In this document: positions 11,449 through 63,686 of the stretch, piece by piece | Position numbering within the stretch: the first letter of the stretch is position 1 | How the letters are laid out: every line of letters begins with the position of its first letter | Sequence record: MT446390.1 | From: Escherichia phage TH12 | DNA: 64,000 nt | Strand: one strand, 5' to 3' | The notes under the pieces: generated by a model | What the model saw: only the letters and a program-made list of their open reading frames with translations | Databases searched by the model: none | What the model was told of the DNA's origin: nothing | Position numbers and translations under genes: made by a program

Positions 11449-11988
11449 ATGAGAACATTTTTAACTGGTCCTTATCTATCCCTGATGAATGCTTTTACAC
11501 ACCATTCTGATGTTAGAGTAGAAGAAATTTGTAAGAACGGTTATGCCCCACCATTTGAAGACGTACTCAAGCAGTACTGTACACTTCGTTTAGACGGCGG
11601 CAGACAATCAGGTAAATCGACTGCAGTAACTAATTTTGCTGTTAATTGGCTGTATGACGGTGGAACAGTTATTGTTCTTTCTAATACTTCAGCCTATGCT
11701 AAAATTTCTGCTGGCAACATTAAAAAAGAATTTTCTCGTTATTCTAGCGATGATATTCGATTCCGTTTATTTACCGATTCTGTCCGTAGTTTTATTGGCA
11801 ATGAAGGTTCTAAATTCCGTGGATTAACGCTTTCTCGTATTCTGTACATAATTGACGAGCCTATTAAAGCTCCTGATATGGATAAGATTTACAATGTCCA
11901 TATTAAAACAGTCCAACACTGTTGCAAAAGCAAATATTGCATCGGCGGTAATGCTCGTCCTCAATTTTTTGTGATTGGAATGCAATGA
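11449..11988 (+). CDS. P-loop NTPase-like protein (179 aa)
   Basis: Walker A-like GGRQSGKST. Confidence 0.5.
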   Translation: MRTFLTGPYLSLMNAFTHHSDVRVEEICKNGYAPPFEDVLKQYCTLRLDGGRQSGKSTAVTNFAVNWLYDGGTVIVLSNTSAYAKISAGNIKKEFSRYSSDDIRFRLFTDSVRSFIGNEGSKFRGLTLSRILYIIDEPIKAPDMDKIYNVHIKTVQHCCKSKYCIGGNARPQFFVIGMQ

Positions 11989-12293
11989 TGACCACTATTG
12001 AAGTTTTTGAATATTGTTATAACAGCCCAGTATGCAATAAAAGGGCTCTTGTAGAAAATTATGAGATTTACCATTTTAAACCTAAACGATATCGTTTGAC
12101 TAAAGGCCCGTTCGCAGGGCAGCAGGTTCTTTGTACTGCTCCTAATGCACGGTTTATGACTAGTATTCCGCATTTCAAAATGGAATTTATTGATGGGCCG
12201 TTTAAGGGATTAATCACTCAAAGTTTAATGGCGTTTAATTCTGACCCATTTTTGATTAAAGAAAAAACTTGGATAAATTTATTTTCTAATTGA
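11985..12293 (+). CDS. hypothetical protein (102 aa)
   Basis: ATGA overlap. Confidence 0.5.
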   Translation: MMTTIEVFEYCYNSPVCNKRALVENYEIYHFKPKRYRLTKGPFAGQQVLCTAPNARFMTSIPHFKMEFIDGPFKGLITQSLMAFNSDPFLIKEKTWINLFSN

Positions 12294-12299
12294 GGTTAT

Positions 12300-12662
12300 A
12301 TGAAAGCATATCAAATTCTTGAAGGCACACACAAAGGCACTATTTATTTTGAAGACGGTACTCAAGCCCGGATTATTGTCTCTAAGACTTTTAAAGAAGA
12401 CGCTATTGTAGACCCGGAAATTTTCTACGGTTTGAATGCCCGTGAAATTGAAATTGAACATCAACCTAAAGTTAAAATTGAAGGTGGTCAACACCTGAAC
12501 GTTAATGTTCTGCGTCGTGAAACTCTGGAAGATGCAGTTAAGCATCCAGAAAAATATCCGCAGTTGACCATCCGTGTATCCGGTTATGCAGTTCGCTTTA
12601 ACTCTCTGACTCCGGAACAGCAGCGTGACGTTATCGCTCGTACCTTTACTGAGAGTCTATAA
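12300..12662 (+). CDS. autonomous glycyl-radical cofactor (GrcA/YfiD-like)
   Basis: C-terminal [25 protein letters not shown] glycyl-radical motif. Confidence 0.8.
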
Positions 12663-12886
12663 TGGCTAAATTGATTATAGAAGGGTCTGAAGATGTTTTA
12701 AAATGTTTTGCCGCCTGGTTTAGTTGCTCAGGCGAGCAATCATTCATTGAAGCATTTAGAATGGGTGATATTACTGGAAACTATCCGACAACTGATATAA
12801 TTGTACGTGGATATGGCATTAATGAGCCTATCCAATTAGTCGAATATGACCTTGCCACTGATGAGGAAATTCCTTATGTCGATTGA
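12662..12886 (+). CDS. hypothetical protein (74 aa)
   Basis: Stop/start overlap. Confidence 0.45.
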   Translation: MAKLIIEGSEDVLKCFAAWFSCSGEQSFIEAFRMGDITGNYPTTDIIVRGYGINEPIQLVEYDLATDEEIPYVD

Positions 12887-27237: not shown

Positions 27238-27711
27238 ATGTTATTATCTGGCAAATTATACAAAGAAGAAAAACAAAAATTTTATGATGCACAGAACGGT
27301 AAGTGTCCTATTTGCCACCGTGAATTAGACCCTGATGTTCAAGGTAACCATCTTGACCACGACCACGAGTTAAACGGGCCAAAAGCCGGTAGAGTTCGTG
27401 GATTACTCTGTAATCTGTGCAACGCAGCAGAAGGCCAAATGAAGCATAAGTTCAACCGTTCTGGTCTTAAAGGTCAAAACGTTGATTACCTCGAATGGCT
27501 TGAAGCTCTTCTTGCTTATTTGAAACAAGATTATTCTGATAATAATATCCATCCTAATTTTGTTCCAGACAAAACTAAAGAGTTCTCAAGACTAGGTAAA
27601 GAGGAAATGATGGCTGAGATGCTTCAAAGAGGATTTGAATATACTGAATCTGATACTAAAACACAATTAATAGCTTCATTCAAAAAGCAGCTTAGAAAGA
27701 GTTTAAAATGA
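27238..27711 (+). CDS. 49: endonuclease VII (Holliday-junction resolvase)
   Basis: MLLSGKLYKEEKQKFYDAQNGKCPIC ... near-identical to T4 gp49. Confidence 0.95.
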   Translation: MLLSGKLYKEEKQKFYDAQNGKCPICHRELDPDVQGNHLDHDHELNGPKAGRVRGLLCNLCNAAEGQMKHKFNRSGLKGQNVDYLEWLEALLAYLKQDYSDNNIHPNFVPDKTKEFSRLGKEEMMAEMLQRGFEYTESDTKTQLIASFKKQLRKSLK

Positions 27712-29525
27712 AAATTGAAAAAGAAATTGAAGGATTAATTTATAAAACTAATAAAGATCTTTTGAACGAGAATGCTAATAAAGATTCTCGTGTTTTTCCA
27801 ACTCAACGGGACCTTATGGCTGGTATTGTGTCTAAGCACATTGCCAAAAATATGGTCCCGTCTTTTATTATGAATGCGCATGAAAGCGGAATCATTCATA
27901 TGCATGATATTGATTATTCTCCTGCTCTTCCGTTTACTAATTGTTGTTTAGTCGATTTAAAGGGGATGCTTGAGAATGGATTTAAATTAGGCAATGCTCA
28001 AATTGAAACGCCTAAATCGATTGGTGTTGCTACTGCAATTATGGCACAAATTACTGCACAAGTTGCTTCCCATCAGTATGGCGGAACTACATTTGCGAAT
28101 GTCGATAAAGTTCTTTCTCCTTATGTTAAACGTACATACGCTAAACATGTTGAAGATGCAGAAAAATGGCAAATACCAGACATTCTGAATTATGCTCAAT
28201 CTAAAACAGAAAAAGACGTATACGATGCATTCCAAGCTTATGAATATGAGGTAAATACTCTTTTTAGTTCAAACGGTCAAACGCCTTTTGTAACAATTAC
28301 ATTTGGTACTGGAACTGATTGGACCGAACGAATGATTCAGAAAGCAATTCTGAAAAATCGGATTAAAGGTCTCGGTCGTGATGGAATAACTCCTATTTTT
28401 CCTAAACTTGTTATGTTTGTTGAAGAAGGTGTTAATCTTTATAAAGATGATCCGAACTATGATATTAAACAACTTGCGTTAGAATGTGCAAGCAAAAGAA
28501 TGTATCCTGACATTATTTCGGTTAAGAATAATAAAGCTATTACTGGTTCTTCAGTTCCAGTTTCTCCAATGGGTTGCCGTAGTTTCTTGAGTGTATGGAA
28601 AGATTCGACTGGTAATGAAATTCTTGATGGACGTAATAATCTCGGTGTTGTAACACTGAATCTTCCTCGCATCGCGTTAGATTCTTATATTGGAACACAG
28701 TTCAATGAACAGAAATTTGTTGAGCTATTTAATGAACGAATGGATCTGTGCTTTGAAGCCTTGATGTGTAGAATTAGTTCCTTAAAAGGAGTTAAAGCGA
28801 CTGTTGCTCCTATTCTTTACCAAGAAGGTGCATTCGGGGTTCGTCTTAAACCTGATGACGACATAATTGAGTTATTTAAAAACGGTAGAAGTTCAGTGTC
28901 TTTAGGATACATTGGTATTCACGAATTGAATATTCTTGTCGGACGTGATATTGGACAAGAAATTTTAACTAAAATGAATGCTCATCTTAAACAGTGGACC
29001 GAAAGAACTGGATTTGCTTTTAGCTTATATTCTACTCCTGCTGAAAACCTTTGTTATCGCTTCTGTAAACTTGATACAGAAAAATATGGAAGTGTAAAAG
29101 ATGTCACTGATAAAGGCTGGTACACTAACAGTTTCCATGTTTCAGTAGAAGAAAATATTACTCCGTTTGAAAAGATTTCTCGTGAAGCCCCATATCATTT
29201 CATTGCGACAGGCGGTCACATTTCTTATGTTGAACTTCCTGATATGAAAAATAACCTAAAAGGTCTTGAGGCTGTATGGGATTATGCTGCACAACATTTA
29301 GATTATTTTGGTGTTAATATGCCAGTAGATAAATGTTTTACATGTGGAAGTACTCATGAAATGACTCCTACTGAAAATGGATTTGTTTGTTCAGTTTGCG
29401 GAGAAACTGATCCTAAAAAGATGAACACTATAAGAAGGACCTGCGGTTATTTGGGAAATCCGAACGAGCGCGGATTTAATCTAGGCAAAAATAAAGAAAT
29501 CATGCATAGGGTTAAACACCAATGA
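27708..29525 (+). CDS. nrdD: anaerobic ribonucleotide reductase, uninterrupted
   Basis: 605 aa, C-terminal glycyl-radical motif RTCGYLG; matches T4 NrdD. Confidence 0.95.
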   Translation: MKIEKEIEGLIYKTNKDLLNENANKDSRVFPTQRDLMAGIVSKHIAKNMVPSFIMNAHESGIIHMHDIDYSPALPFTNCCLVDLKGMLENGFKLGNAQIETPKSIGVATAIMAQITAQVASHQYGGTTFANVDKVLSPYVKRTYAKHVEDAEKWQIPDILNYAQSKTEKDVYDAFQAYEYEVNTLFSSNGQTPFVTITFGTGTDWTERMIQKAILKNRIKGLGRDGITPIFPKLVMFVEEGVNLYKDDPNYDIKQLALECASKRMYPDIISVKNNKAITGSSVPVSPMGCRSFLSVWKDSTGNEILDGRNNLGVVTLNLPRIALDSYIGTQFNEQKFVELFNERMDLCFEALMCRISSLKGVKATVAPILYQEGAFGVRLKPDDDIIELFKNGRSSVSLGYIGIHELNILVGRDIGQEILTKMNAHLKQWTERTGFAFSLYSTPAENLCYRFCKLDTEKYGSVKDVTDKGWYTNSFHVSVEENITPFEKISREAPYHFIATGGHISYVELPDMKNNLKGLEAVWDYAAQHLDYFGVNMPVDKCFTCGSTHEMTPTENGFVCSVCGETDPKKMNTIRRTCGYLGNPNERGFNLGKNKEIMHRVKHQ

Positions 29526-29992
29526 ATTATGATAGATTTTATCCTTGCGATTTTGTGAATGGTCCTGGTTGTAGGGTCGTTCTTTTCGTTACGGGGTGTT
29601 TGCATAAATGCGAAGGGTGTTATAATAAATCAACATGGAATGCTAGAAATGGTATTCCATTCACTGGTGAAACACTAGAACAATTAATTGAATGTTTGAA
29701 TAATTATTATATAGAAGGATTAACTATAACCGGAGGAGACCCTCTCTATCCTGATAACCGAGATGTTATTCATTACATTGTTCAAACAGTAAAAAATCTT
29801 TATCCCAATAAAAGCATTTGGTTGTGGACAGGATATAAGTTTGAAGATATTAAACAGCTAGAAATGCTTAAATATGTTGATGTTATTATTGATGGGAAGT
29901 ATGAGAAAAATCTTCCGACCAAAAAGCTGTGGCGAGGATCAGATAATCAGCGACTTTGGTCAAATACCGATGGGGTGTGGAAACATGATTAA
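29522..29992 (+). CDS. nrdG: anaerobic RNR activating enzyme (radical SAM)
   Basis: CLHKCEGC CxxxCxxC motif; ATGA-coupled to nrdD. Confidence 0.9.
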   Translation: MNYDRFYPCDFVNGPGCRVVLFVTGCLHKCEGCYNKSTWNARNGIPFTGETLEQLIECLNNYYIEGLTITGGDPLYPDNRDVIHYIVQTVKNLYPNKSIWLWTGYKFEDIKQLEMLKYVDVIIDGKYEKNLPTKKLWRGSDNQRLWSNTDGVWKHD

Positions 29993-30321: not shown

Positions 30322-30639
30322 ATGATTAGTTTTGAGCGGTATGTAGTAGAGAGTTGGAATGGGTTTGATATGTTCGGTAATGACTATTATTTTTACGAAT
30401 GTAATCTAAATCCTAGTTTTTGGGCTGGACGTGAACGAGATCTCGAAGAAATTAATGCTCGCGCCGAATTGTTAGGTGAACTGCCTACAGTTTATTTTAC
30501 ATTTGATGAATCTGGATTTGTTATCCAGGTTTATTTTCCTGAAGAAAACTCTGGTGAGGATTCTGTTAATCCTCCTTATTGGGCTTATCAAGGAATTATT
30601 TCTCGTGGAACAAAACTCGAACTTAAAGAACAAGATTGA
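30322..30639 (+). CDS. hypothetical protein (105 aa)
   Basis: ORF. Confidence 0.5.
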   Translation: MISFERYVVESWNGFDMFGNDYYFYECNLNPSFWAGRERDLEEINARAELLGELPTVYFTFDESGFVIQVYFPEENSGEDSVNPPYWAYQGIISRGTKLELKEQD

Positions 30640-30928
30640 AATCTATGGCATCCCTGAAGAAGTTGGACGTTGTCCAGGATGTTATACTGTTACAAAACTT
30701 TTAAAGGAGCTCAATGCTCCTTATACATTTTATAAAGTCCTCACTAATAATGGTAAGATTGAATATGACCGTCCTTTAATCGTATCTCTTGCTAAACGTG
30801 CAGGATTCACTTCACTTAATATTCGTTATCCTGTCATATTTTTAAATGGTAAGAAACAAAAGAATATTGCAGAGTTTAAAAAGTCCTTGATTTCATTAGG
30901 ATACGACTCTGATATCATAGAAGATTGA
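30605..30928 (+). CDS. nrdH: glutaredoxin-like protein (NrdH-like; CPGC); start unresolved (GTG at 30605 or frameshift from upstream ORF)
   Basis: KIEIYGIPEEVGRCPGCY resembles NrdC N-terminus; no in-frame ATG near fold start. Confidence 0.45.
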   Translation: MEQNSNLKNKIEIYGIPEEVGRCPGCYTVTKLLKELNAPYTFYKVLTNNGKIEYDRPLIVSLAKRAGFTSLNIRYPVIFLNGKKQKNIAEFKKSLISLGYDSDIIED

Positions 30929-49640: not shown

Positions 49641-50539
49641 TGGCTATTTTCCGCGTACCAATCTTGAGTATGCGGTCTTATGAAACTGGACAGTATGCTA
49701 TCCTTAAGGATGGCAACTTCCAACTTCATTTGCACCGTGCTAATCCGGGTGATGTGATTACATATCCACGTAATGCATCTGATATTAAAGAATGCGAACG
49801 TCTTTTCCCAGAATTTAAGTTTGTTCCATTATGGTATAAAGATAACGCGTATAACACTCGTAAATATTTCTGGACTGAAAATGAATTTGTGGTTGATTCA
49901 TTAATTGATTATTATGATTGTGATTTTCTAATCACAGATATCACTGGTTATGGCGGCGCTTTTGATGTGGAATTCAATTTCAATATCACTGCAGACCCTA
50001 ATAAACCACGTTTTTATATTGATGAATTCTTAAAAACCGACATGTTGTCTGTTAATCGTTCACTTCAAACTACTGTGTTGAATGAACGTCAAAAAGGAGT
50101 GCTGGTTAACGCAGGTGCAGATGGTAATAAGATTATCGTAACGCAGAAAGTTATACGTCCTTCCATCATGCAGCGTCTTGTAGGTGATTTGGCTCCTATT
50201 CATCTAGATGGTATTTTTCATCCATTTCGAATTAGTGACCCATGTTATCGTTTTGAACAAGTGGTTGAATGTGCAATTCAATTAGGTCAACCGCTTTATA
50301 TAACCGATCCAAATAATAGCTTCGACAGAAATAAGTATCCTGAAGAAGCGCTGATTCGAATTTTTAAACCAACTAAAACTGAGTACTATCAAATTCTTAA
50401 AGGACGTCCGAAAATTCAATATTTCGAAAATCCTGAAGAAGTATTCCATCCAGGTCTTGGTGAGTTCATCTACTTTAATGCTTTAATTTCTTCGCCGTAT
50501 AATATACCTAAATACGAAGATGTCGTAATCGAGGAATAA
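49640..50539 (+). CDS. hypothetical protein (299 aa) at the T4 beta-gt position; candidate DNA glycosyltransferase
   Basis: Position only; no resemblance to T4 beta-gt. Confidence 0.35.
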   Translation: MAIFRVPILSMRSYETGQYAILKDGNFQLHLHRANPGDVITYPRNASDIKECERLFPEFKFVPLWYKDNAYNTRKYFWTENEFVVDSLIDYYDCDFLITDITGYGGAFDVEFNFNITADPNKPRFYIDEFLKTDMLSVNRSLQTTVLNERQKGVLVNAGADGNKIIVTQKVIRPSIMQRLVGDLAPIHLDGIFHPFRISDPCYRFEQVVECAIQLGQPLYITDPNNSFDRNKYPEEALIRIFKPTKTEYYQILKGRPKIQYFENPEEVFHPGLGEFIYFNALISSPYNIPKYEDVVIEE

Positions 50540-50540
50540 A

Positions 50541-51089
50541 ATGGCTAAAATTATTTTAGTAGACGGCCCAGATAATGCTGGTAAAACAACTTTCATTAAT
50601 GACATAATGGAAATTAGTGAAAGATATGTAAAGATTGATTTCCCTAAACGAACAGTTGATGGACGTTTCGATGTTAAGTCTCGAAATGAAGTTGGTTGTT
50701 TCGAAACGATGTTGAATTATTTAGACCCTACTAAGATTTATCTGTTAGACCGTGGATATATTAGTAACTGGGTTTATGGACGTATTCGACAAGATGCGGA
50801 CTCGGTTCTTGACGTTTATGAACAGGACTATGTTCGTCTTTGCCAAAACCATGATGTGTTCACAATTATTTTAACACGTAACGAAATGACTGAAAGTTTT
50901 GAAGACGACCTTATTACTTTGTCTTCATTCGGTTTTAATACAGTCGTTTCACATTTTGAAGAGTTTGCAATTCATAACAAAATCCAAACATATCAATTAC
51001 TTAATCATGATGGTGCTAACAAAGTTATAGGATTTAATGCAAGCGAACGTAATTGTTTGATTACAGAAATCATCAAATGGGCTCGTTAA
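50541..51089 (+). CDS. P-loop kinase-like protein (182 aa)
   Basis: Walker A DGPDNAGKTT at N-terminus. Confidence 0.5.
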   Translation: MAKIILVDGPDNAGKTTFINDIMEISERYVKIDFPKRTVDGRFDVKSRNEVGCFETMLNYLDPTKIYLLDRGYISNWVYGRIRQDADSVLDVYEQDYVRLCQNHDVFTIILTRNEMTESFEDDLITLSSFGFNTVVSHFEEFAIHNKIQTYQLLNHDGANKVIGFNASERNCLITEIIKWAR

Positions 51090-51187
51090 GAGCCATTTAA
51101 AGTTTTAAATGCTGTATAACCCTTAGTATATAATCGTCTTATCTTTTAAACATGAGTAAAATATAATGATGCCTATGGAAAAATACA

Positions 51188-52360
51188 ATGTCTGATTTAA
51201 AATCTCGTCTGATTAAAGCTTCTACTTCTAAAATGACTGCGGACTTGACTAAGTCTAAGCTGTTTAATAATCGTGATGAAGTCCCTACTCGTATTCCGAT
51301 GTTGAATATCGCACTAGGTGGTGCTCTGAATGCAGGATTGCAATCAGGCTTGACTATTTTTGCTGCACCTTCTAAACACTTTAAAACGCTGTTTGGACTA
51401 ACTATGGTTGCAGCGTATATGAAGAAATATAAAGATGCAATCTGTTTGTTTTATGACTCAGAATTTGGTGCTTCAGAATCTTATTTTCGTTCAATGGGTG
51501 TTGATTTAGACCGTGTAGTTCATACTCCGATTCAATCTGTCGAACAACTTAAAGTTGATATGACTAATCAGCTTGACGCGATTGAACGCGGTGATAAAGT
51601 TATTATCTTTATCGATTCAATCGGTAATACTGCATCTAAGAAAGAAACCGAAGATGCATTGAATGAGAAAGTCGTAGGTGATATGTCTCGTGCTAAGGCA
51701 CTTAAATCTCTGTTCCGTATTGTGACTCCTTATCTGACTATTAAAGATATTCCATGTGTTGCAATCAACCATACAGCAATGGAAATCGGCGGATTGTATC
51801 CTAAAGAGATTATGGGCGGTGGTACAGGTATTCTTTATTCTGCCAACACGGTATTTTTTATCTCTAAACGTCAGGTTAAAGAAGGTACAGAATTGACCGG
51901 TTATGACTTCACGTTGAAAGCGGAAAAATCTCGTACAGTTAAAGAGAAATCTACTTTCCCGATCACGGTTAATTTTGATGGCGGTATTGACCCATTCAGT
52001 GGCTTGTTAGAAATGGCAACTGAAATTGGTTTTGTAGTTAAGCCTAAAGCCGGGTGGTATGCTCGTGAATTCCTTGACGAAGAAACAGGCGAAATGATTC
52101 GTGAAGAGAAATCATGGCGTGCTAAAGCTACTGATTGTGTAGAATTCTGGGGACCTTTGTTTAAACATAAGCCTTTCCGAGATGCAATTGAAACTAAATA
52201 TAAACTAGGTGCTATCTCTTCTATTAAAGAAGTTGATGACGCTGTTAACGACCTTATTAATTGCAAAGCAACAACTAAAGTTCCGGTTAAAGCTTCTGAT
52301 GCTCCGTCTGCAGCAGATATAGAAAACGACCTTGACGAAATGGAAGATTTCGATGAATAA
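51188..52360 (+). CDS. uvsX: RecA-like recombinase UvsX
   Basis: MSDLKSRLIKASTSK ... matches T4 UvsX (390 aa). Confidence 0.95.
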   Translation: MSDLKSRLIKASTSKMTADLTKSKLFNNRDEVPTRIPMLNIALGGALNAGLQSGLTIFAAPSKHFKTLFGLTMVAAYMKKYKDAICLFYDSEFGASESYFRSMGVDLDRVVHTPIQSVEQLKVDMTNQLDAIERGDKVIIFIDSIGNTASKKETEDALNEKVVGDMSRAKALKSLFRIVTPYLTIKDIPCVAINHTAMEIGGLYPKEIMGGGTGILYSANTVFFISKRQVKEGTELTGYDFTLKAEKSRTVKEKSTFPITVNFDGGIDPFSGLLEMATEIGFVVKPKAGWYAREFLDEETGEMIREEKSWRAKATDCVEFWGPLFKHKPFRDAIETKYKLGAISSIKEVDDAVNDLINCKATTKVPVKASDAPSAADIENDLDEMEDFDE

Positions 52361-52694
52361 TCTCGATGATTTAAATCTAGAAATCGTTGATGAATCCCCT
52401 TCTTCGGAAGGGGAAGACATTCGCAAAGAACGAGTGTTTAATGAATCTCTTAAAATTATCCGTTCAGCAATGGAAAATGTCATTCAAGAGATTCTGATTA
52501 CACTTGAAGACGGTTCTCATCATATAGTCTATATTACAAAACTAGACTGGGTTGATGGTAAAATCGTAATGGACTTTGCAGTTCTTGACCAGGACAGAAA
52601 AGCAGAACTTGCACCACATGTTGAAAAATGTGTTACAATGCAGGTACAACAAGCTTTTAATGAACGAACCAAGAAAAAATTTAAATTCTTTTAA
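52353..52694 (+). CDS. 40: gp40-like protein (by position)
   Basis: Position between uvsX and 41; overlaps uvsX stop. Confidence 0.45.
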   Translation: MNNLDDLNLEIVDESPSSEGEDIRKERVFNESLKIIRSAMENVIQEILITLEDGSHHIVYITKLDWVDGKIVMDFAVLDQDRKAELAPHVEKCVTMQVQQAFNERTKKKFKFF

Positions 52695-52703
52695 GGAGTT
52701 ATC

Positions 52704-54146
52704 GTGGTAGAAATTATTTTGTCTCATCTCGTATATGACCAGGCTTATTTTTCTAAGGTCTGGCCTTATATGGATTCTGATTACTTTGAGCGTGGACCGG
52801 CAAAAAATGTCTTTAAAATTATAAAGAACCACGTTAACGAATATAACGCAATGCCATCCATTAATGCATTAAAGGTGGCTTTAGATAACAGTTCTTTAAC
52901 TGAAGCCGAATATAAAGGAACTTCAGACTTAATTGAAAAATTGGCTGATACTCCTGAAGACCACGAATGGTTGGTTAAAGAAACTGAGAAATATGTCCAG
53001 CAAAAAGCGATGTATAATGCTACATCCAAAATCATTGAGATTCAGTCTAATGCTGAACTACCTCCAGAACAACGTAACAAGAAAATGCCTGATGTAGGAG
53101 CTATTCCTGATATTATGCGTCAAGCACTTTCAATTTCGTTCGATAGTTATGTTGGACATGACTGGATGGAAGACTACGAAGCACGCTGGCTTTCTTATCT
53201 AAATAAAGCACGTAAGGTCCCGTTCAAATTAAACATTTTGAATAAAATAACCAAAGGTGGTGCAGAAACAGGTACACTAAACGTTTTAATGGCCGGTGTT
53301 AACGTCGGTAAATCTTTAGGCCTTTGTTCACTTGCTGCAGATTATCTTCAAACAGGTCATAATGTTCTTTATATTTCCATGGAAATGGCTGAAGAAGTTT
53401 GTGCTAAGCGTATAGATGCAAACATGCTTGACGTATCACTCGATGATATCGATGATGGTAACGTATCTTATGCTGAATATAAAGCCAAGATGGAAAAATG
53501 GCGTTCAAAAACAACATTAGGACGTTTAGTAGTTAAACAGTATCCTACTGGTGGAGCTAATGCTAATACATTCCGTGCGTTGCTTAATGAGTTAAAACTT
53601 AAGAAGAACTTTGTGCCATCTGTAATCATGGTTGATTACTTAGGTATTTGTGGGTCTTGTCGTATCAGAGTTTACACTGAAAATAGCTACACATTAGTTA
53701 AAGCTATCGCAGAAGAACTTCGTGCATTAGCAGTAGAATCTGAAACAGTTCTATGGACTGCAGCTCAAGTAGGACGTGCAGCATGGGATGCTTCAGACAT
53801 GAACATGAGTGATATCGCAGAATCAGCAGGTTTACCAGCAACGGCAGATTTCATGTTGGCCGTAATTGAAACCGAAGAACTTGCACAAGCTGAACAACAA
53901 CTTATCAAACAAATCAAATCACGATACGGTGATAAGAATAAGTGGAACAAGTTCTTGATGGGTGTACGTAAAGGCAATCAGAAATGGGTTGAGATTGAGC
54001 AAGAAGGCATGAACACACCTAACACAGTAAATGAAAACGCAGGTGCTCAGATGCGTCAGGCAGAGGTGAATCGTACGGAACGCGTAGGTAAAGCCAAAGC
54101 AACACGTGCTGACCTAGATAGCTTAGCCAATGAGTTAAAATTTTAA
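52704..54146 (+). CDS. 41: replicative DNA helicase gp41; GTG start
   Basis: MVEIILSHLVYDQAYFSKVW ... Walker A GVNVGKS; AAGGAG 8 nt upstream of GTG. Confidence 0.95.
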   Translation: MVEIILSHLVYDQAYFSKVWPYMDSDYFERGPAKNVFKIIKNHVNEYNAMPSINALKVALDNSSLTEAEYKGTSDLIEKLADTPEDHEWLVKETEKYVQQKAMYNATSKIIEIQSNAELPPEQRNKKMPDVGAIPDIMRQALSISFDSYVGHDWMEDYEARWLSYLNKARKVPFKLNILNKITKGGAETGTLNVLMAGVNVGKSLGLCSLAADYLQTGHNVLYISMEMAEEVCAKRIDANMLDVSLDDIDDGNVSYAEYKAKMEKWRSKTTLGRLVVKQYPTGGANANTFRALLNELKLKKNFVPSVIMVDYLGICGSCRIRVYTENSYTLVKAIAEELRALAVESETVLWTAAQVGRAAWDASDMNMSDIAESAGLPATADFMLAVIETEELAQAEQQLIKQIKSRYGDKNKWNKFLMGVRKGNQKWVEIEQEGMNTPNTVNENAGAQMRQAEVNRTERVGKAKATRADLDSLANELKF

Positions 54147-54152
54147 TAAAAA

Positions 54153-54171
54153 GGAGACTTCGGTCTCCTTT
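54153..54171 (+). terminator. UUCG-tetraloop hairpin
   Basis: GGAGAC-TTCG-GTCTCC + TTT. Confidence 0.5.
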
Positions 54172-54234
54172 CGGGGTTTACATCTTCCTCTAGGCATGAT
54201 ATGATGAACTTACACCAACCAAGAGGAAAACATT

Positions 54235-54609
54235 ATGAATATGTCTCAAGCAATTTTTACTGCAATCACAGAAAACACAACTGTTGAAGTAGTTTCTCCA
54301 CTGGCAACCTACGTTATTCTTGCCCCTAAAACTATTGTATCTCGTATGGAAAACATGGGCAAACGTATCGTACAAATTGTCGGAGCCGGAAATCAAAAAC
54401 TTGATTATCTGCGAACCATCAAAGCTTATGAACATTTCCAACTCGAAAAAGGTTCTCCTATCCGGGTAGAACTCGTAAATGGTGATATCGTTCGAGCAAT
54501 GTTCCATCATTTCTATGCATTGAATGACCCATCTAAAGCGGTTCGTTTAATTGCATACGACGCAAACCAAAACGAAATCAACGCAGATATATCTAAATTA
54601 CGTTTTTAA
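54235..54609 (+). CDS. hypothetical protein (124 aa)
   Basis: AGAGGAAAA RBS. Confidence 0.5.
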   Translation: MNMSQAIFTAITENTTVEVVSPLATYVILAPKTIVSRMENMGKRIVQIVGAGNQKLDYLRTIKAYEHFQLEKGSPIRVELVNGDIVRAMFHHFYALNDPSKAVRLIAYDANQNEINADISKLRF

Positions 54610-54638
54610 GTTTACTTCTCCGGTAGTTGTGTTATTAT
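54610..54638 (+). promoter_or_regulatory. early promoter with inverted repeat CTCCGGTAGTTG/CAACTACTGGAG
   Basis: GTTTAC, 17 nt, TATTAT. Confidence 0.55.
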
Positions 54639-54664
54639 AGACCTATCAACTACTGGAGAACAAA

Positions 54665-54982
54665 ATGAAAACCATCGATTGTAAAGCAGAATTTAAGATT
54701 TTTTATCACGGTTCAAGTAGTTCAGCTAACATCGAAAACATGCTTTGTCCTCCTGAAGAAACAGGAGTTCTGTCTGAAACTGGACGTAAGAAAAACTTGG
54801 ATCGTGTATTCTTTACTGAAGATATCGGTTTAGCAAAGATTTATGCAGGACGAGCAGCACGCTCTTATGGAGGTGAACCACGTCTCTATCGAGTAATTTC
54901 TCCGGTAGACGTAGTTCAAATGAATAATACTAAAGGTGCTACAGTTTATCACGCTGAATGGGCCTTCTGTGAGGAAATATGA
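54665..54982 (+). CDS. hypothetical protein (105 aa)
   Basis: ORF. Confidence 0.5.
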   Translation: MKTIDCKAEFKIFYHGSSSSANIENMLCPPEETGVLSETGRKKNLDRVFFTEDIGLAKIYAGRAARSYGGEPRLYRVISPVDVVQMNNTKGATVYHAEWAFCEEI

Positions 54983-55170
54983 GCAAATTAACTAAAGTTA
55001 CTTTTATCGGTTGGTTTAAAAGCGGCGAGATGTTCACTAAAGATATCATGTTATCAGGTGATCGCGAAGAAATCGAGTGGGTTGCGGTACAACTTGCTGA
55101 AGTGAACAAAGCATTAGTTAAAGCATTTGTTAATGACGAGAAAGTTTTTGAAGCTGATTTCAGAGGATAA
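54979..55170 (+). CDS. hypothetical protein (63 aa)
   Basis: ATGA overlap. Confidence 0.45.
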   Translation: MSKLTKVTFIGWFKSGEMFTKDIMLSGDREEIEWVAVQLAEVNKALVKAFVNDEKVFEADFRG

Positions 55171-55171
55171 T

Positions 55172-55384
55172 ATGTATTCAACTGTGTTTAAACCATCGAC
55201 ATACGAATTTGCATCAACTACACAATGGAAAGCTCTTATTCTGGAAGGATGGGAACTAATGATGGACTGCGAAGCATCTGAAAAGTTTCCACACGGCAAA
55301 GTGGACTTCGTTAAATTTGCTGTACGTCCGACTAAACGACAAATTCGTCAAGAAAAACGCAAATTTCGCAAAAGTTTAAAATAG
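55172..55384 (+). CDS. small basic-tailed protein (70 aa; VRPTKRQIRQEKRK)
   Basis: Paralog of 26617-26787. Confidence 0.45.
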   Translation: MYSTVFKPSTYEFASTTQWKALILEGWELMMDCEASEKFPHGKVDFVKFAVRPTKRQIRQEKRKFRKSLK

Positions 55385-55386
55385 CT

Positions 55387-55416
55387 GTTTACAAGCACTA
55401 CATAATGTGTTACTAT
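55387..55416 (+). promoter_or_regulatory. early promoter (GTTTAC, 18 nt, TACTAT)
   Basis: Motif. Confidence 0.5.
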
Positions 55417-55444
55417 CTTTCTATCAACTACAGAGGAAATTGAA

Positions 55445-55813
55445 ATGAAAAAATTAATCACTTTAGCAATGGTATTTGGATTAACCGGATGTGGTGCCCA
55501 TGGCTTTATCCCTAATAATGTTGGCCAATTGATTTATAACCCGAATGTTAAACAGTACAACCAACCTAAAGTTGAAGTGGAAGACCCGGTTACTGTAGGT
55601 AATCGAATGATTCAAGCTGATGCCCATGCTCAACGTTATCGTGATTCTGATACTGTAGCATTGTCAAAAGAACAACGCGTTAAAGAACATTGTCTACAGG
55701 CTACTGAAATCGCATTCATTCGCTATGTTGAAACAACTGGTAAAGAGCCTTCCCAGAAACAAATCGCGAATAACTACGTCCAGTGTATTGAACGTTTAAA
55801 CAAATTTAATTAA
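55445..55813 (+). CDS. predicted lipoprotein (122 aa; lipobox LTGC)
   Basis: Signal peptide ending in lipobox Cys. Confidence 0.55.
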   Translation: MKKLITLAMVFGLTGCGAHGFIPNNVGQLIYNPNVKQYNQPKVEVEDPVTVGNRMIQADAHAQRYRDSDTVALSKEQRVKEHCLQATEIAFIRYVETTGKEPSQKQIANNYVQCIERLNKFN

Positions 55814-55874
55814 TTGGTTTACGCCAAAGTTAAAACAAGATACTATAAACATAACAAATCAAGAGGAAATTAAC

Positions 55875-56123
55875 ATGGAATTATTCGTAGCTAGTTCAGT
55901 AGCAGTTTTAATCGCAGGTATTGGTTCAATCATCATTTACATGTTGCCTTGGGTAATCGCACTTATTCGTGGCACAAAAAGCACAACAGCAATCTTCTTT
56001 GTATCTTTACTCTTTAACTGGACGATGATTGGTTGGATTGGAACTTTAATTTGGTCTATCGTTGCCGAAAAGAAATCTGCTCAGCAGCCTCAACAAGTAA
56101 TTATTATTCGCGAAAAAGAATAA
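55875..56123 (+). CDS. two-helix inner-membrane protein (82 aa); Imm-like size and topology
   Basis: Two hydrophobic helices. Confidence 0.45.
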   Translation: MELFVASSVAVLIAGIGSIIIYMLPWVIALIRGTKSTTAIFFVSLLFNWTMIGWIGTLIWSIVAEKKSAQQPQQVIIIREKE

Positions 56124-56127
56124 ACTT

Positions 56128-56158
56128 GTTTACATTATAGATGGACTATGGTATAGTA
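56128..56158 (+). promoter_or_regulatory. early promoter with palindrome
   Basis: GTTTAC ... TATAGT. Confidence 0.45.
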
Positions 56159-56186
56159 GTCCTATCAAATCAACTAAGGAGTTAAA

Positions 56187-56480
56187 ATGAAAAAGTTATC
56201 ATTGGCAGCAATCTTACTCGCAGTATCATGTGCACCAGCTCCAGTTACAGCAGGTTATGATAAAGACCTCTGTGAGTGGTCAATGACTGCAAATCAAGAA
56301 GATGTTGAACAACAAATCTTCTCTGATATCGTGAACATCACTAAACGAGACCGTCCTAATATGGTTAATAAAGTTGTTGAACAACTTAAGTCTGGCGGTA
56401 TCATGCAGTACAACTATGTTTTGTATTGTGACCCTAATTTCGATAACAAAGATATCGTAACCGAAATCACAGGTGAGTAA
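56187..56480 (+). CDS. sp: periplasmic Spackle-like protein (97 aa)
   Basis: Signal peptide then GYDKDLCEWSMTA, matching my recollection of T4 Sp. Confidence 0.6.
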   Translation: MKKLSLAAILLAVSCAPAPVTAGYDKDLCEWSMTANQEDVEQQIFSDIVNITKRDRPNMVNKVVEQLKSGGIMQYNYVLYCDPNFDNKDIVTEITGE

Positions 56481-56481
56481 T

Positions 56482-57132
56482 ATGATTTATTATATGCACA
56501 AAAATGCACCATTTAAATATGGTAAATTTCCTAATGCACAATGTTATAATATAACGCCGAATGAAAATAATAACGGATACCATATTGGTGTAATTTTTGT
56601 AATTGTTAAAGATAATGAAATCGTTGCCTGGGCAGATTTTAAAGGTACAACATATGATGTTAATCCTGTGCCTTTCACATATTACAATATAATGGATTTG
56701 GCATATGATTATAATTGGTTTACTCATGATACTCTGGCACATGTTGAAGGCGTAGGATTTGATATCTCTTATTCTAGTTATTCATTATGTCCTATGAGCC
56801 GAGCTCACGGTAAAGATGTATCATATCTTTCAATTCGGAAACGTGTAAACTTCAAACGTAGTACAGAGTATGTTGGTGGACTCTTTGTTAAAGATAATAA
56901 AATAACTCGTATTAGTTATCCTTTAAGTGTAGGTCAAAAAGATGTTGATGTTGATTTAGACTTAACTGAAAGTAACATTAATCGTATTGCTTCTGTATAT
57001 TTTGATATCGATGAAAAAATTGTAGTGTGTGGATACGAATTACCACCTGAAGAAAAGGTTGAAGCAATTGAAGTCGAATTAGAAATTTCTGTTGATGACC
57101 AAATATTTAATGCATTTATGAATCGAGGTTAA
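56482..57132 (+). CDS. hypothetical protein (216 aa)
   Basis: ATG 2 nt after upstream stop. Confidence 0.5.
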   Translation: MIYYMHKNAPFKYGKFPNAQCYNITPNENNNGYHIGVIFVIVKDNEIVAWADFKGTTYDVNPVPFTYYNIMDLAYDYNWFTHDTLAHVEGVGFDISYSSYSLCPMSRAHGKDVSYLSIRKRVNFKRSTEYVGGLFVKDNKITRISYPLSVGQKDVDVDLDLTESNINRIASVYFDIDEKIVVCGYELPPEEKVEAIEVELEISVDDQIFNAFMNRG

Positions 57133-57133
57133 A

Positions 57134-57331
57134 ATGACTACTGCAATTTGCACTGGTTCTAAAATTAGTGTTTTTACAAGTTTTGAAGATTATGAAGTTG
57201 TTTCAAAACACCAATACAATATTAGCGTAAAAGCTAATGATGGTGTAATTTGGAATATTCCACACTATGAAGACACTACATATGAAGTCACAGATGCGAA
57301 CGGTGATAAAGCGATCTTTGTGATTGATTAA
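57134..57331 (+). CDS. hypothetical protein (65 aa)
   Basis: ORF. Confidence 0.45.
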   Translation: MTTAICTGSKISVFTSFEDYEVVSKHQYNISVKANDGVIWNIPHYEDTTYEVTDANGDKAIFVID

Positions 57332-57350
57332 ATATACTCAGGAGGTACCT

Positions 57351-57818
57351 ATGGGTATTATTAACACTGCAATAGATTCTGTTTACGCATATAAGTTTAT
57401 TCGACTAATGCAAAAACCTTTTACCGAATGGAAAGCGTACGAAGCCAAAATAATCGACGAACGTGGAAGTGTTCTTAAACGTCCTTCTACTCCCGAAGAG
57501 AAAGCGGCTTATACACCTTTTCATGCTTCAGTTCGTTCAATGAAGCGAATGATGAGTACTGTTCCAGGTCTTAATGGAATGGCCTCAATGATGTCTGCCT
57601 GGAGTGCTGTAGCTTCACGCTATAACATTACAGAAGAACAGCAGAAAGAAATATTTAAAGAACTCCCTTTATTTGAGGATATGGTGGCTGGTGATTCAGG
57701 TGGCAGTCCTCAAGCTATTGCATCAGGAACTACTACAGGTGCAATTGTAAATAAAGGTCCAGAACAAATTCCTTCCAAGAAAAGAAAGCGAATTAAAGTA
57801 AATATTAATAAGTTGTGA
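57351..57818 (+). CDS. hypothetical protein (155 aa)
   Basis: ATG after AGGAGG. Confidence 0.5.
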   Translation: MGIINTAIDSVYAYKFIRLMQKPFTEWKAYEAKIIDERGSVLKRPSTPEEKAAYTPFHASVRSMKRMMSTVPGLNGMASMMSAWSAVASRYNITEEQQKEIFKELPLFEDMVAGDSGGSPQAIASGTTTGAIVNKGPEQIPSKKRKRIKVNINKL

Positions 57819-57857
57819 TAAGATGGCCTTATTAATTTAAGGCCTCTGGAGAATACT

Positions 57858-58880
57858 ATGGCTGAATGGATAGATAATGAATTTGCTTATCGTGCGTTTT
57901 CTCACCTCCCTCGTTTTAGACAAATCAATAATTCAAGCACATTTAAATTAACATTTCGTTGTCCAGTTTGTGGCGACTCTCAGACAGATGCAATGAAAGC
58001 CCGCGGATGGTATTATGGCGGTACTCCAGGTAATGTGCATTGCTATAACTGTCAATATCATAATACAATTTCTGGATACTTAAAAGAGTACGATGAAGAG
58101 CTTTATCGCGAGTATCTAATGGAAGTTCGTAAAGAAAAAGCTAGAATGGAACCAAAGATTGAAAAGGTTCCTGAAGCTAAGCCGGAGCCAGAGAAAAAGA
58201 CTATAAATTCTTTGCCGTCTTGTTCTCGTCTGGACAAGTTGCCTGAAGAGCATCCTATTGTGAAATATGTTAAGTCTCGGTGTATTCCTAAAGAATCATG
58301 GAACAGATTATGGTTCACATTAGAATGGCCCAAATTGGTCAACAAGATTCAACCTGGTACGTATAAGAAAGAGATTCCTGAACCGCGTTTAGTGATTCCT
58401 ATTTTTAATAAAGATGGGAAGGCCGAGTCATTCCAAGGACGTGCACTTCGTAAAGATGCTCCTCAGAAATATATCACTATTAAAGCGTTTGAGTCTGCAA
58501 CAAAAATTTATGGTGTTGAACGTGTTAAGGAAGGAGACGTCTGGGTAATGGAAGGTCCTATTGATAGTTTATTCATACCCAATGCAATCGCTATTACAGG
58601 CGGCTCAATAGATTTAGATGTGGTACCATTTAAAGAACGTCGGGTATGGGTAATGGATAATGAACCTAGGCATCCAGATACTATAGCTCGTATGAAGCGA
58701 TTAGTTGATGCAGGCGAACGTGTCATGTTCTGGGACCGAGCTCCATGGAGATCAAAGGATGTGAATGATATGGTAATGAAAGAAAATGCAACACCACAAG
58801 AAATTTTAGAATATATGAAACAGAATATTTCAAGTGGGTTGCATGCTAAAATGAGATTATCTCGTTATTCGAAGATTTAA
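57858..58880 (+). CDS. 61: DNA primase gp61
   Basis: WIDNEFAYRAFSHLPRF ... zinc ribbon CPVCGDS / CYNC; matches T4 gp61. Confidence 0.95.
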   Translation: MAEWIDNEFAYRAFSHLPRFRQINNSSTFKLTFRCPVCGDSQTDAMKARGWYYGGTPGNVHCYNCQYHNTISGYLKEYDEELYREYLMEVRKEKARMEPKIEKVPEAKPEPEKKTINSLPSCSRLDKLPEEHPIVKYVKSRCIPKESWNRLWFTLEWPKLVNKIQPGTYKKEIPEPRLVIPIFNKDGKAESFQGRALRKDAPQKYITIKAFESATKIYGVERVKEGDVWVMEGPIDSLFIPNAIAITGGSIDLDVVPFKERRVWVMDNEPRHPDTIARMKRLVDAGERVMFWDRAPWRSKDVNDMVMKENATPQEILEYMKQNISSGLHAKMRLSRYSKI

Positions 58881-59074
58881 ACAAGCCCTATAATAGCAAA
58901 GGCCAAATCAACTACAGTATCCAATGGAACAGAAGGAACTATAATACCATTAGCAACTAACAATGGTGCAATCCCGAAGTTCCATGAAATAATGCCACCT
59001 ACAACTATTGCAGCGATAGCAGTTTTCTTTTTATTGCCTTTAATAGCGTTGATTAACGATGGAAGTTTAAACAT
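58877..59074 (-). CDS. small hydrophobic membrane protein (65 aa) on the opposite strand
   Basis: AAGGAG 5 nt upstream of ATG on minus strand; sits in an otherwise empty gap. Confidence 0.5.
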   Translation of the reverse strand: MFKLPSLINAIKGNKKKTAIAAIVVGGIISWNFGIAPLLVANGIIVPSVPLDTVVDLAFAIIGLV

Positions 59075-59163
59075 AATATCTCCTTAGTTACCTATTATTT
59101 ATTACGCTTTATAAAATTAATGTTAGAATTAAACTCTCTTACACTGAATTGAAAGGAAAAATA

Positions 59164-59685
59164 ATGGCGCACTTTAACGAATGTTCACAACTTATTTCTG
59201 GTGTTGATAAAGCAGAAGAAGCTTATTTTAATGCTCTGATTCACGAAGATAAAGACCCACTGCAGGTAATGCTTGATATGCAGAAATCTTTACAGGTTCG
59301 TTTGGCAAATGACAAGCCTGAACATAACAAACATCCTGATGAATTGGCTACTGCCGGTGATGTTGTTGATTGGCTGCGTAATCAGAAAGATTATATTGAT
59401 GATGAATTCCGTGAACTGTTGACTTCACTTGGCGGTATGAGCAATGGTGAAAAAGCCGCCAGCAGTGTATGGAAGCCGTGGAAAGCACAACATGCCGAAT
59501 ATCGTAATCGTCGTATCGATGAACTGTCTCCTGAAGACCAGCTTGAAATTAAATTCGAGATGATTGATATCCTCCACTTTGTTCTGAACATGTTCCAAGG
59601 CCTTGGACTTACTGCAGAAGAAATCTTTAAACTTTACTACTTGAAAAACCAACACAACTTTGAACGCCAGGATAATGGTTACTAA
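59164..59685 (+). CDS. 56: dCTP pyrophosphatase gp56-like
   Basis: MAHFNECSQLISGVD... recalled as T4 gp56-like; position. Confidence 0.6.
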   Translation: MAHFNECSQLISGVDKAEEAYFNALIHEDKDPLQVMLDMQKSLQVRLANDKPEHNKHPDELATAGDVVDWLRNQKDYIDDEFRELLTSLGGMSNGEKAASSVWKPWKAQHAEYRNRRIDELSPEDQLEIKFEMIDILHFVLNMFQGLGLTAEEIFKLYYLKNQHNFERQDNGY

Positions 59686-59690
59686 TTAAG

Positions 59691-59698
59691 TTATAAAT
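59691..59698 (+). promoter_or_regulatory. late promoter TATAAATA
   Basis: Exact motif about 33 nt upstream of soc. Confidence 0.55.
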
Positions 59699-59730
59699 AC
59701 ACCTGTAATTAAACAACAAAGGAGTTAATT

Positions 59731-59967
59731 ATGGGTGGTTACGTTAATATCAAAACCTTTACACATCCGGCTGGCGAAGGCAAAGAAGTTAAAGGTATGG
59801 AAGTTTCTGTACCGTTTGAGATTTATTCAAACGAACATCGAATTGCAGATTCCCATTACCAAATCTTTCCATCAGAAAAGGCAGCTTATTCTGATGTCGT
59901 TTCTGATGCAGCAACTTGGAAAACTAAGAACGCTGCAATGTTTACCCCTACACCAGTAAGTGGTTAA
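59731..59967 (+). CDS. soc: small outer capsid protein Soc
   Basis: MGGYVNIKTFTHPAGEGKEVKG ... matches recalled RB69 Soc. Confidence 0.9.
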   Translation: MGGYVNIKTFTHPAGEGKEVKGMEVSVPFEIYSNEHRIADSHYQIFPSEKAAYSDVVSDAATWKTKNAAMFTPTPVSG

Positions 59968-59976
59968 ATAATTTAA

Positions 59977-60001
59977 GGAATCCTTCGGGATTCCTTTTTT
60001 C
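59977..60001 (+). terminator. UUCG-tetraloop terminator
   Basis: GGAATCC-TTCG-GGATTCC + TTTTTT. Confidence 0.65.
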
Positions 60002-60010
60002 GTTTCTAGA

Positions 60011-60040
60011 GTTTACAACCACTAAAAACTGTGTTAAGAT
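60011..60040 (+). promoter_or_regulatory. early promoter (GTTTAC, 18 nt, TAAGAT)
   Basis: Motif. Confidence 0.45.
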
Positions 60041-60068
60041 ATTCTTACTTACTCAAGAGGAGAACAAT

Positions 60069-60296
60069 ATGTTAAATCGTTGGATTAAACCTAATAACAC
60101 ATTAGGTGCTTTGATTGCTCAAGAAGTTTCGTTGAAATACGGTCTTGGATATTACGATGATGTAGTCGTACACTCATTCATGATGGATGGTGAAGACGTC
60201 AAATTTAATGCCGAAATCCGTTGGGATGATGGTGGTGTTCGTTTTGTTCGAGGAACAATTAATGCTTACGATGCTGAAGAAGTTTTTTGCTGTTAA
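60069..60296 (+). CDS. hypothetical protein (75 aa)
   Basis: AGAGGAGAA RBS. Confidence 0.5.
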   Translation: MLNRWIKPNNTLGALIAQEVSLKYGLGYYDDVVVHSFMMDGEDVKFNAEIRWDDGGVRFVRGTINAYDAEEVFCC

Positions 60297-60309
60297 ACCA
60301 GGCGAAGGT

Positions 60310-61138: not shown

Positions 61139-61139
61139 T

Positions 61140-61509: not shown

Positions 61510-61535
61510 GGCTTATCTTTAAATGGAGGTCTATC

Positions 61536-63684: not shown

Positions 63685-63686
63685 TT

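Follow-up and report, generated by a model that had tools for sequence, protein, structure and literature searches.

The stretch of DNA analyzed here (hereafter the window) comprises 64,000 nucleotides of Escherichia phage TH12 (sequence record MT446390.1), and positions 12300..12662 of its + strand hold an intact open reading frame (ORF) with an ATG start and a TAA stop that encodes 120 amino acids. By its reading frame, its match to PHROG 1209, and its match to the structure PDB 6OWR, this gene is the Tequatrovirus ortholog of T4 vs.6, the product of which, Y06I, is a GrcA-like autonomous glycyl-radical cofactor; knowledge of the gene and of its biochemical role dates from 2001. Two parts can be distinguished in it. 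The N-terminal half (codons 1–60, 12300..12479, + strand) belongs, by alignment and profile comparison, to an old phage lineage and is a diverged homolog of the N-terminal, disordered half of Escherichia coli YfiD (GrcA). The remainder (12478..12662, + strand) corresponds to nucleotides 200–384 of E. coli grcA at 96.2% nucleotide identity, encodes the structured glycyl-radical domain, and is a host-derived tract. Its core, at 12480-12649 on the + strand (gene nucleotides 181–350), is defined from variable-site tables as the segment in which the majority base of a 17-phage panel never departs from that of E. coli. The radical glycine, Gly95, is encoded by GGT at 12582..12584 (+ strand) within the motif RVSGYAV, and corresponds to G102 of GrcA and G734 of pyruvate formate-lyase (PFL), according to the codon table, alignment with the structures 6OWR and 1H16, and PMC8683613.

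The gene lies in a run of tightly packed, head-to-tail ORFs on the + strand. Its upstream neighbor is a co-directional vs.7 homolog (11985..12293, + strand; PHROG 2049 and synteny), the TGA stop of which (12291-12293) is overlapped by the Shine-Dalgarno sequence GAGG read directly at 12292..12295 on the + strand, 4 nucleotides ahead of the vs.6 ATG. Downstream, a vs.5 homolog (12662..12886, + strand; PHROG 1986) overlaps vs.6 in the sequence TAATG, the last base of the vs.6 stop being the first base of the vs.5 start, and the frame is continuous. A consensus scan found no promoter-like site on the + strand from 11852 to 12300 (overall counts of such sites were not above those in shuffled sequence), and a promoter or terminator of its own was rejected for vs.6. 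Because the + strand ORFs are packed and no promoter-like site lies upstream, the simplest reading is that vs.6 would be transcribed together with the vs cluster.

All 363 nucleotides are identical to a gene of phage HY126 annotated as "autonomous glycyl radical cofactor," and a megablast search with vs.6 matched 651 phage records, almost all of them Tequatrovirus. The order of genes in HY126, lysozyme e-denV-ipII-ipIII-vs.8-vs.7-vs.6-vs.5...regB-vs-tk, is that of the T4 map, and by annotated neighbors the placement of vs.6 between vs.7 and vs.5 is kept in HY126, T4 strain 147, IME537, UFV-AREG1, and Shfl2. The T4 protein is 95% identical to that of the window (tblastn). At the level of profiles, the Gly_radical domain (Pfam PF01228) was detected at amino acids 59–101 (E 2e-18), and PHROG 1209 is matched over the full length (amino acids 1–120 on profile positions 1–121, E 6.1e-63). 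Among solved structures, E. coli YfiD/GrcA (6OWR, E 2e-42) comes nearest, and the PFL C-terminus (residues 696–759 of PDB 1H16, 64 amino acids, E 3e-26) is next. The protein thus has the features by which the GrcA/YfiD family (TIGR04365, IPR011140) is defined structurally: it is a small, stand-alone protein, and its C-terminal Gly_radical domain bears the RVSGYAV loop and is homologous to PFL 693–759. One score speaks against the assignment. For the NCBIfam GrcA equivalog, which has a curated cut-off of 170 bits and gives E. coli GrcA 233.9 bits, the window protein scores 159.1 bits (amino acids 18–120), its best family match yet 11 bits below the cut-off, because its N-terminal half has diverged. 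A full-length glycyl radical enzyme of the PFL/TdcE kind, with its ten-stranded barrel of about 760 amino acids and its Cys418/Cys419 pair, is ruled out, since the protein has 120 amino acids and covers only PFL 696–759.

GenBank labels for vs.6 vary widely, from GrcA to "pyruvate formate-lyase," "putative acetyltransferase-related protein," "vs.6 hypothetical protein," and plain "hypothetical protein," and PHROG 1209 is labeled "unknown function." The "pyruvate formate-lyase" labels are misnomers, and such inconsistent annotation hides a function that has been characterized. T4 Y06I and E. coli YfiD are validated spare parts that rescue PFL cleaved by oxygen (Wagner et al. 2001, pmid 11444864, as related in PMC8683613). 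According to PMC8683613, the PFL-activating enzyme (PFL-AE) places the radical on either protein, and PFL cleaved at Gly734 then regains activity. G734 is both the radical site and the oxygen cleavage site of PFL; residues 61–127 of YfiD are structured and copy PFL 693–759, and residues 1–60 are disordered and required for binding cleaved PFL and for efficient installation of the radical (PMC8683613). For the TH12 protein, this function is presumed by transfer from its T4 ortholog, which counts against taking it as established for this phage.

The 3′ half of the gene was compared with the E. coli grcA gene (384 nucleotides) in a codon alignment. Codons 61–120 encode a protein segment 100% identical to GrcA 68–127, and with the stop codon they match the host DNA at 176 of 183 positions (96.2%), all seven differences being synonymous; in codons 1–60, 18 of 60 amino acids (about 30%) are shared with E. 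coli GrcA. The first-pass annotation, made from the letters of the sequence, had described a GrcA/YfiD-type glycyl-radical C-terminus nearly identical to that of the host over about 55 codons, and the nucleotide alignment that it proposed as a check does return the elevated identity, over slightly more of the gene (about 61 codons). As a null expectation, the 60 amino acids were held fixed and codons were drawn 100,000 times according to their usage in 49 other ORFs from the window; the outcome was 140.5 ± 4.1 matching nucleotides of 180, with a maximum of 157, against an observed 173. Among hosts, the C-terminal 60 amino acids show no variation from E. coli as far as Serratia, Pectobacterium, and Edwardsiella, and the DNA encoding them is 84–93% identical to that of E. 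coli (for this tract, Citrobacter is at 92.9% and Salmonella at 84.2%, both farther from E. coli than the phage is). Since host genes for an invariant protein have DNA only 84–93% identical and the null lies far lower, the likeness of the tract goes beyond what protein conservation would produce, and it stands beside a segment with no such excess, as expected of a mosaic.

Several further comparisons place the source of the tract in Escherichia. An Escherichia allele was the nearest non-Tequatrovirus sequence for every Tequatrovirus tract in 99.7% of bootstraps, in competition with 79 other hosts and 6 other phage lineages, and the two segments of the gene are discordant: the tract nests with Escherichia alleles, and the N-terminal half groups with other phage vs.6 genes. 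T4 strain 147 and the grcA gene of E. coli strain 1190 share an uninterrupted exact run of 176 nucleotides. When the whole 64-kb window was compared by megablast with 5,426 complete E. coli genomes, it matched at one place per genome, 12478-12662(-12670); segments 25001-50000 and 50001-64000 had no megablast match in these genomes. The gene for PFL itself, pflB, was considered as a donor and rejected, because the phage tract is 79–82% identical to pflB 3′ ends and 96–99% identical to grcA. The junction, which falls at phage codon 60/61 and GrcA codon 67/68, is a few residues inside the line that divides YfiD 1–60 from 61–127. Taken together, the nucleotide comparisons support a host origin of the 3′ half of vs.6 from within the diversity of Escherichia grcA.

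Codon usage and composition tell less than direct identity does. CTG, CCG, and CAG account for 9 of the 13 Leu, Pro, and Gln codons of the C-terminal half. In 49 other ORFs their share is 16.6%, and none of the 60-codon windows in those ORFs comes up to the share in the C-terminal half. The codons that the first-pass annotation had singled out as host-like are therefore well chosen for these three, and wrongly for CGT, which is the phage's own preferred Arg codon (61.8%). The sliding composition and codon-usage plot that it suggested is likewise of divided outcome: the CTG/CCG/CAG share is exceptional, but the GC content of third codon positions (GC3) is 0.367 in the C-terminal half and 0.267 in the N-terminal half, values as high as the former or higher occur in 16% of 61-codon windows elsewhere, and the fit of the C-terminal half to phage codon usage is about that of an average gene. 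Bulk composition was accordingly rejected as evidence, since sliding GC, GC3, and codon-usage fit do not single out this half. The C-terminal half is not distinctive in composition because many of the codons in E. coli grcA end in T or A and are also among those favored by T4. The compositional break is weak, and the evidence is the direct nucleotide identity.

The N-terminal half had been taken for a phage-like segment fused to a host-like radical domain. The gene is a mosaic, but a fusion of unrelated parts is not what the profiles indicate. An hhalign comparison of 10 phage N-termini (from T4-like, T5-like, and jumbo phages) with 8 bacterial GrcA N-termini gave a probability of 97.9% (E 4.9e-13, 62 columns, 27% identity), so that the phage N-terminal half is a diverged GrcA homolog and not a foreign fusion partner. 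Because the N-terminal half is homologous to that of GrcA, the 3′ half has been replaced, or converted, within an old full-length phage homolog of grcA. Within Tequatrovirus, the N-terminal half falls into two deep haplogroups 18 of 177 nucleotides apart, one with the window phage, Av-05, and phiE142, the other with T4, T2, and most others; in codons 1–60 the window differs from T4 by 6–7 amino acids. In phage OES_C-2, the vs.6 gene has a 6-nucleotide in-frame deletion in an EIEIE repeat just upstream of the tract and encodes 118 amino acids; in its tract, identity to E. coli reaches 99.5%, the highest value found.

The tract is widespread among relatives of TH12. With E. coli grcA as the query, 638 phage records matched at 95–99.5%, all of them Tequatrovirus, and all 638 alignments begin at grcA nucleotide 199/200 and extend to the stop codon. 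Among the carriers are T4, T2, the RB phages, and phages isolated from Shigella, Yersinia, Hafnia, Citrobacter, and Salmonella. Tequatrovirus alone reached identities of 96.7–98.9% in a panel made up of 80 IMG/VR loci and GenBank representatives. The Pseudotevenvirus RB16 encodes the identical 60 amino acids in DNA that is only 83% identical, and Karamvirus, Krischvirus, Aeromonas, jumbo, and T5-like phages are 70–84% identical to the best of 81 host sequences; by these values, the non-Tequatrovirus lineages with the same protein half are at synonymous saturation (70–84%). The description of the tract as a recent host-derived segment thus holds as to its derivation (176 of 183 nucleotides) and fails as to its being recent or peculiar to TH12: with some 640 Tequatrovirus genomes carrying it, T4 and T2 included, the distribution indicates a property of the genus.

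Outside the genus, a few homologs differ from this pattern. In Klebsiella phages of the genus Jiaodavirus (e.g., phage pKp20), vs.6 has the residues LLDAVEH of the Klebsiella/Salmonella/Enterobacter type; its tract is 88–90% identical to the best hosts (K. pneumoniae grcA not among them), above the other non-Tequatrovirus lineages, and shares an exact run of 56 nucleotides with Lelliottia grcA. From these identities, the Jiaodavirus tract may represent a second, older host-derived event. The T5-like Escherichia phage FFH1 (Tequintavirus), a siphovirus unrelated to TH12, encodes a full-length GrcA homolog (27341-27709) with a phage-type MKAYQ N-terminus and a C-terminal half slightly nearer to pflB 3′ ends (78.7%) than to grcA (75.4%), as well as an NrdD-like anaerobic reductase (53024-54898). 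Several "viral" contigs of IMG/VR hold bacterial grcA (Yersinia-like, 91%) or full-length pflB 3′ ends, not phage vs.6, and are probably bacterial or prophage-flank DNA.

Variation within Tequatrovirus bears on how often the host sequence entered the phage gene. Between the window and T4, identity is 62–87% in vs.7, 68–77% in vs.5, 85–95% in the N-terminal half of vs.6, and 97–98% in the tract. From the variable-site tables for phiE142 versus T4, the haplogroups differ at 11 of 53 amino-acid-identical codons of the N-terminal half and at 0 of 56 in the tract (Fisher p = 2e-4); the tract contains no difference fixed between the haplogroups, and over gene nucleotides 181–350 phiE142 has the E. 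coli base throughout. The tract thus has the appearance of an island held at the host sequence in diverged phage backgrounds, and of being younger than the haplogroups. In the 17-phage panel, each interior difference from E. coli is confined to one phage. Phage-specific variants common to many phages occur nowhere but in the four final codons and at the base that immediately precedes the tract, a pattern that conversion end-points inside the homologous segment would give. The window phage has four private synonymous changes in the tract, all GC→AT. Across the panel there are 8 GC→AT and 7 AT→GC substitutions, and the direction of amelioration is uninformative.

An indication of more than one donor comes from IME537. 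This phage is nearly identical to T4 in the N-terminal half and the flanks. Of 170 sites in the tract, six differ between the two, three of them (204A, 285A, and 336T) being exactly the sites that separate a second E. coli allele, that of strain TR01, from the common one. Subsets of the second-allele variants occur in Shfl2, SHBML-50-1, ECO07P4, and 101117BS1, one phage carries the K-12-type 219C, and about 50 of the 651 phage records have exactly one of 285A and 336T in an otherwise identical 72 nucleotides. TR01 is itself labeled O157:H7, and its allele differs from that of O157:H7 strain 3-5-1 as part of a haplotype with 87 single-nucleotide polymorphisms (SNPs) spread over 5.2 kb (5,185 bases) of trxC-yfiF-ung-grcA-eamB-yfiE-srmB, and it is a genuine host allele because these SNPs span a 5-kb divergent haplotype and not a patch the size of the tract. 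That number of SNPs is far above what would be expected within the clonal O157:H7 lineage, and TR01 is either mislabeled or carries a large recombinant segment. On the haplogroup contrast, the diverged flanks, the position of the variants common to many phages, and these SNPs shared with a host allele, repeated host-to-phage conversion with at least two host alleles as donors is, in our judgment, somewhat better supported than its denial. A stronger form of the proposal, in which the radical domain evolves in concert with the host gene, vs.6 being overwritten again and again in its 3′ half by various grcA alleles through homologous recombination during infection and the phage's own N-terminal targeting half being retained, we regard as evenly poised.

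Several facts weigh against repeated conversion. Some of the panel phages and the TR01 allele were picked by best-match search, which brings ascertainment bias; the C/T difference at 336 is a transition and could recur; the panel gives no clear signal of amelioration; and the E. coli-type tract persists in Tequatrovirus phages isolated on Yersinia, Hafnia, Citrobacter, or Salmonella, so that conversion does not track every host. A single conversion in the ancestor of Tequatrovirus, with the tract spread by phage–phage recombination and the shared variants arising as parallel mutations, would fit this retention in non-Escherichia isolates, the star-like pattern of private interior changes, and the left boundary at grcA nucleotide 199/200 that about 640 genomes have in common. 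Recombination is very frequent among T-even phages and could spread one acquired tract. The boundary is also expected under repeated conversion if heteroduplex cannot extend into the upstream region, which is about 60% identical. What a single event accommodates poorly is IME537, with all three SNPs of the second host allele, two of them T→A transversions, in a T4-identical background, together with the at least ~50 phage records that have one of 285A and 336T. We consider a single event possible, and the less probable account of these variants.

Other accounts of the tract fare considerably worse. That no recent exchange took place, and that a whole gene acquired in ancient times has had its 3′ half held by purifying or codon-level selection, would draw on the extreme constraint implied by 60 C-terminal amino acids invariant across many enterobacterial genera. 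Protein constraint, however, does not fix synonymous sites: RB16 has the same 60 amino acids at 83% nucleotide identity and others are at 70–81%, and neither the ceiling of the codon-drawn null (157 of 180, against 173) nor the 176-nucleotide T4/E. coli run agrees with such selection, which makes this explanation very improbable. Transfer in the opposite direction, E. coli grcA or some of its alleles having received the tract from T-even phages, gains something from 285A and 336T, the apparent frequency of which is higher in phages (at least ~8% of records) than in E. coli (a B-like allele in at most 70 of 5,426 genomes). It is nonetheless improbable, since grcA sits at a conserved ung-grcA-eamB locus, divergence of the tract follows host taxonomy, and the usage of CTG/CCG/CAG resembles that of the host and is out of the ordinary for the phage. 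The rare-allele SNPs, moreover, lie inside the 5.2-kb, 87-SNP haplotype and not in a short patch, and for TR01 a phage origin of the allele was rejected on that ground. An assembly chimera or contamination would account for the sharp junction and for nothing else; with the same junction in about 640 independently sequenced phage genomes (T4, T2, and RB phages among them), a continuous reading frame, and a stop codon that overlaps the next phage gene, it can practically be dismissed. A final alternative concerns the client of the protein. The same genome encodes NrdD, an anaerobic (class III) ribonucleotide reductase (27708..29525, + strand; Pfam NRDD, E 2.5e-171, plus Gly_radical), and NrdG, its radical S-adenosylmethionine (SAM) activase (29522..29992, + strand; Pfam Fer4_12, E 2e-48, and Radical_SAM), as the first-pass annotation had rightly observed. 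The vs.6 protein might then be a spare part for the phage's own NrdD, activated by NrdG, and not for host PFL; vs.6 co-occurs with nrdD and nrdG in T4-like and T5-like phages, and reviews speculate on spare parts for other glycyl-radical enzymes (PMC8683613). The radical domain is nevertheless that of host GrcA, with 64 amino acids aligned to PFL 696–759, and T4 Y06I worked with PFL and PFL-AE in the experiments described in PMC8683613. BLASTP found no similarity between the vs.6 domain and the C-terminus of NrdD, where the loop RRTCGYLG lies behind a Zn-ribbon. Rescue of NrdD by vs.6 is unlikely, the tract copying PFL 696–759 with no detectable similarity to the NrdD radical loop, and we give this alternative little credence.

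The explanation that we hold with considerable confidence for the evidence taken jointly is that vs.6 is a GrcA-type spare part, an old phage gene with its 3′ half overwritten, probably more than once, by Escherichia grcA. At the level of DNA, nucleotides ~179–350+ of an old grcA-like phage gene would have been overwritten by homologous recombination with chromosomal Escherichia grcA, genus-wide. At the level of the protein, the radical domain is residue for residue that of the host and therefore should fit host PFL and the activating enzyme PflA exactly, and the N-terminal half would be the phage's own version of the PFL-binding half. In the proposed sequence of steps, host PflA would install a glycyl radical on Gly95, the vs.6 protein would dock on host PFL cleaved by oxygen at Gly734, and the docked protein would restore the conversion of pyruvate and coenzyme A (CoA) to acetyl-CoA and formate. 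T-even infection would shut off host expression, so that the host should be unable to make new PflB or GrcA; damaged PflB would then not be replaced nor grcA induced, and the phage copy could keep acetyl-CoA/ATP and formate flowing under the micro-oxic conditions of the gut. Class III ribonucleotide reductases use formate as their reductant (PMC4493059), and the formate so produced might supply the phage NrdD. Such a supply line from PFL through formate to NrdD would offer a reasonable rationale for the gene; that it draws on co-occurrence only counts against it.

Compared with known systems, the window gene is closest to T4 vs.6 (Y06I), with which it shares the vs.7-vs.6-vs.5 locus, a length of 120 amino acids, 95% amino acid identity, identical C-terminal 60 amino acids, and an E. 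coli-like 3′ tract. It differs from T4 in belonging to the second N-terminal haplogroup, in its four private synonymous tract changes, and in having neighbors that are 62–87% identical. Like E. coli GrcA/YfiD (6OWR; TIGR04365), it encodes a stand-alone glycyl-radical protein of about 14 kDa, the residues 61–120 of which are GrcA 68–127 and the N-terminal half of which is homologous. Unlike GrcA, its N-terminal half is about 30% identical and 7 residues shorter, its score lies below the NCBIfam cut-off, and it resides in an early cluster of a lytic phage, the host gene being located at ung-grcA-eamB. With the C-terminal domain of PflB (1H16, 696–759), it has in common the fold and the RVSGYAVRF motif that the spare part replaces; it differs in lacking the catalytic barrel and in a tract only 79–82% identical to pflB 3′ ends.

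A parallel on the nucleotide level is offered by cyanophages, in which psbA and psbD are reportedly mosaics formed by host–phage intragenic recombination (work from Zeidner in 2005 and Sullivan in 2006 is said to have described this). Those cases share with vs.6 the host-like patches in a phage auxiliary metabolic gene and the discordant phylogeny of segments, and exchange appears repeated in them, as it may be in vs.6. The present case differs in involving an enteric host, T4 itself, and one tract of ~170–185 nucleotides with a fixed left boundary at a domain border, and in that the vs.6 tract is the only host-identical DNA in 64 kb.

In full-text searches of the literature we found no description of a nucleotide-level mosaic in vs.6, or of polymorphism shared there by host and phage, and an earlier mention may exist; what was found consists of function papers and a 2006 comparative paper that noted only the Gly_radical domain. 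The vs.6 system is already known, and the conversion pattern is a modestly interesting side result. It means that about 180 nucleotides of T4-type genomes are essentially E. coli chromosomal DNA, ending near a protein domain border. If repeated conversion is true, then even in a phage that breaks down the DNA of its host, recombination with that DNA is frequent enough to keep a segment "host-current"; the gene would be an enteric counterpart to the cyanophage psbA mosaics, and T4 would provide a tractable laboratory system in which to measure gene conversion from host to lytic phage.

Some minor features of the window complete the description. The values for vs.7 (62–87%) and vs.5 (68–77%) against T4 may be set beside those between T4 and IME537, which are 92–100% identical in both genes; from these comparisons, the cluster of small ORFs around vs.7 and vs.5 appears to be a locally hypervariable region between Tequatrovirus lineages. 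The T4 tRNA cluster comprises eight genes. An Rfam search of the window returned two tRNAs and no other family, and ARAGORN and Rfam agree on only two tRNA genes, Met(CAT) at 902-976 and Arg(TCT) at 980-1056. Finally, an ORF at 30476-30928 has a PHROG match to a thioredoxin domain at amino acids 45–149, and starts with the stretch of highest GC3 in the window (0.54 over 61 codons).

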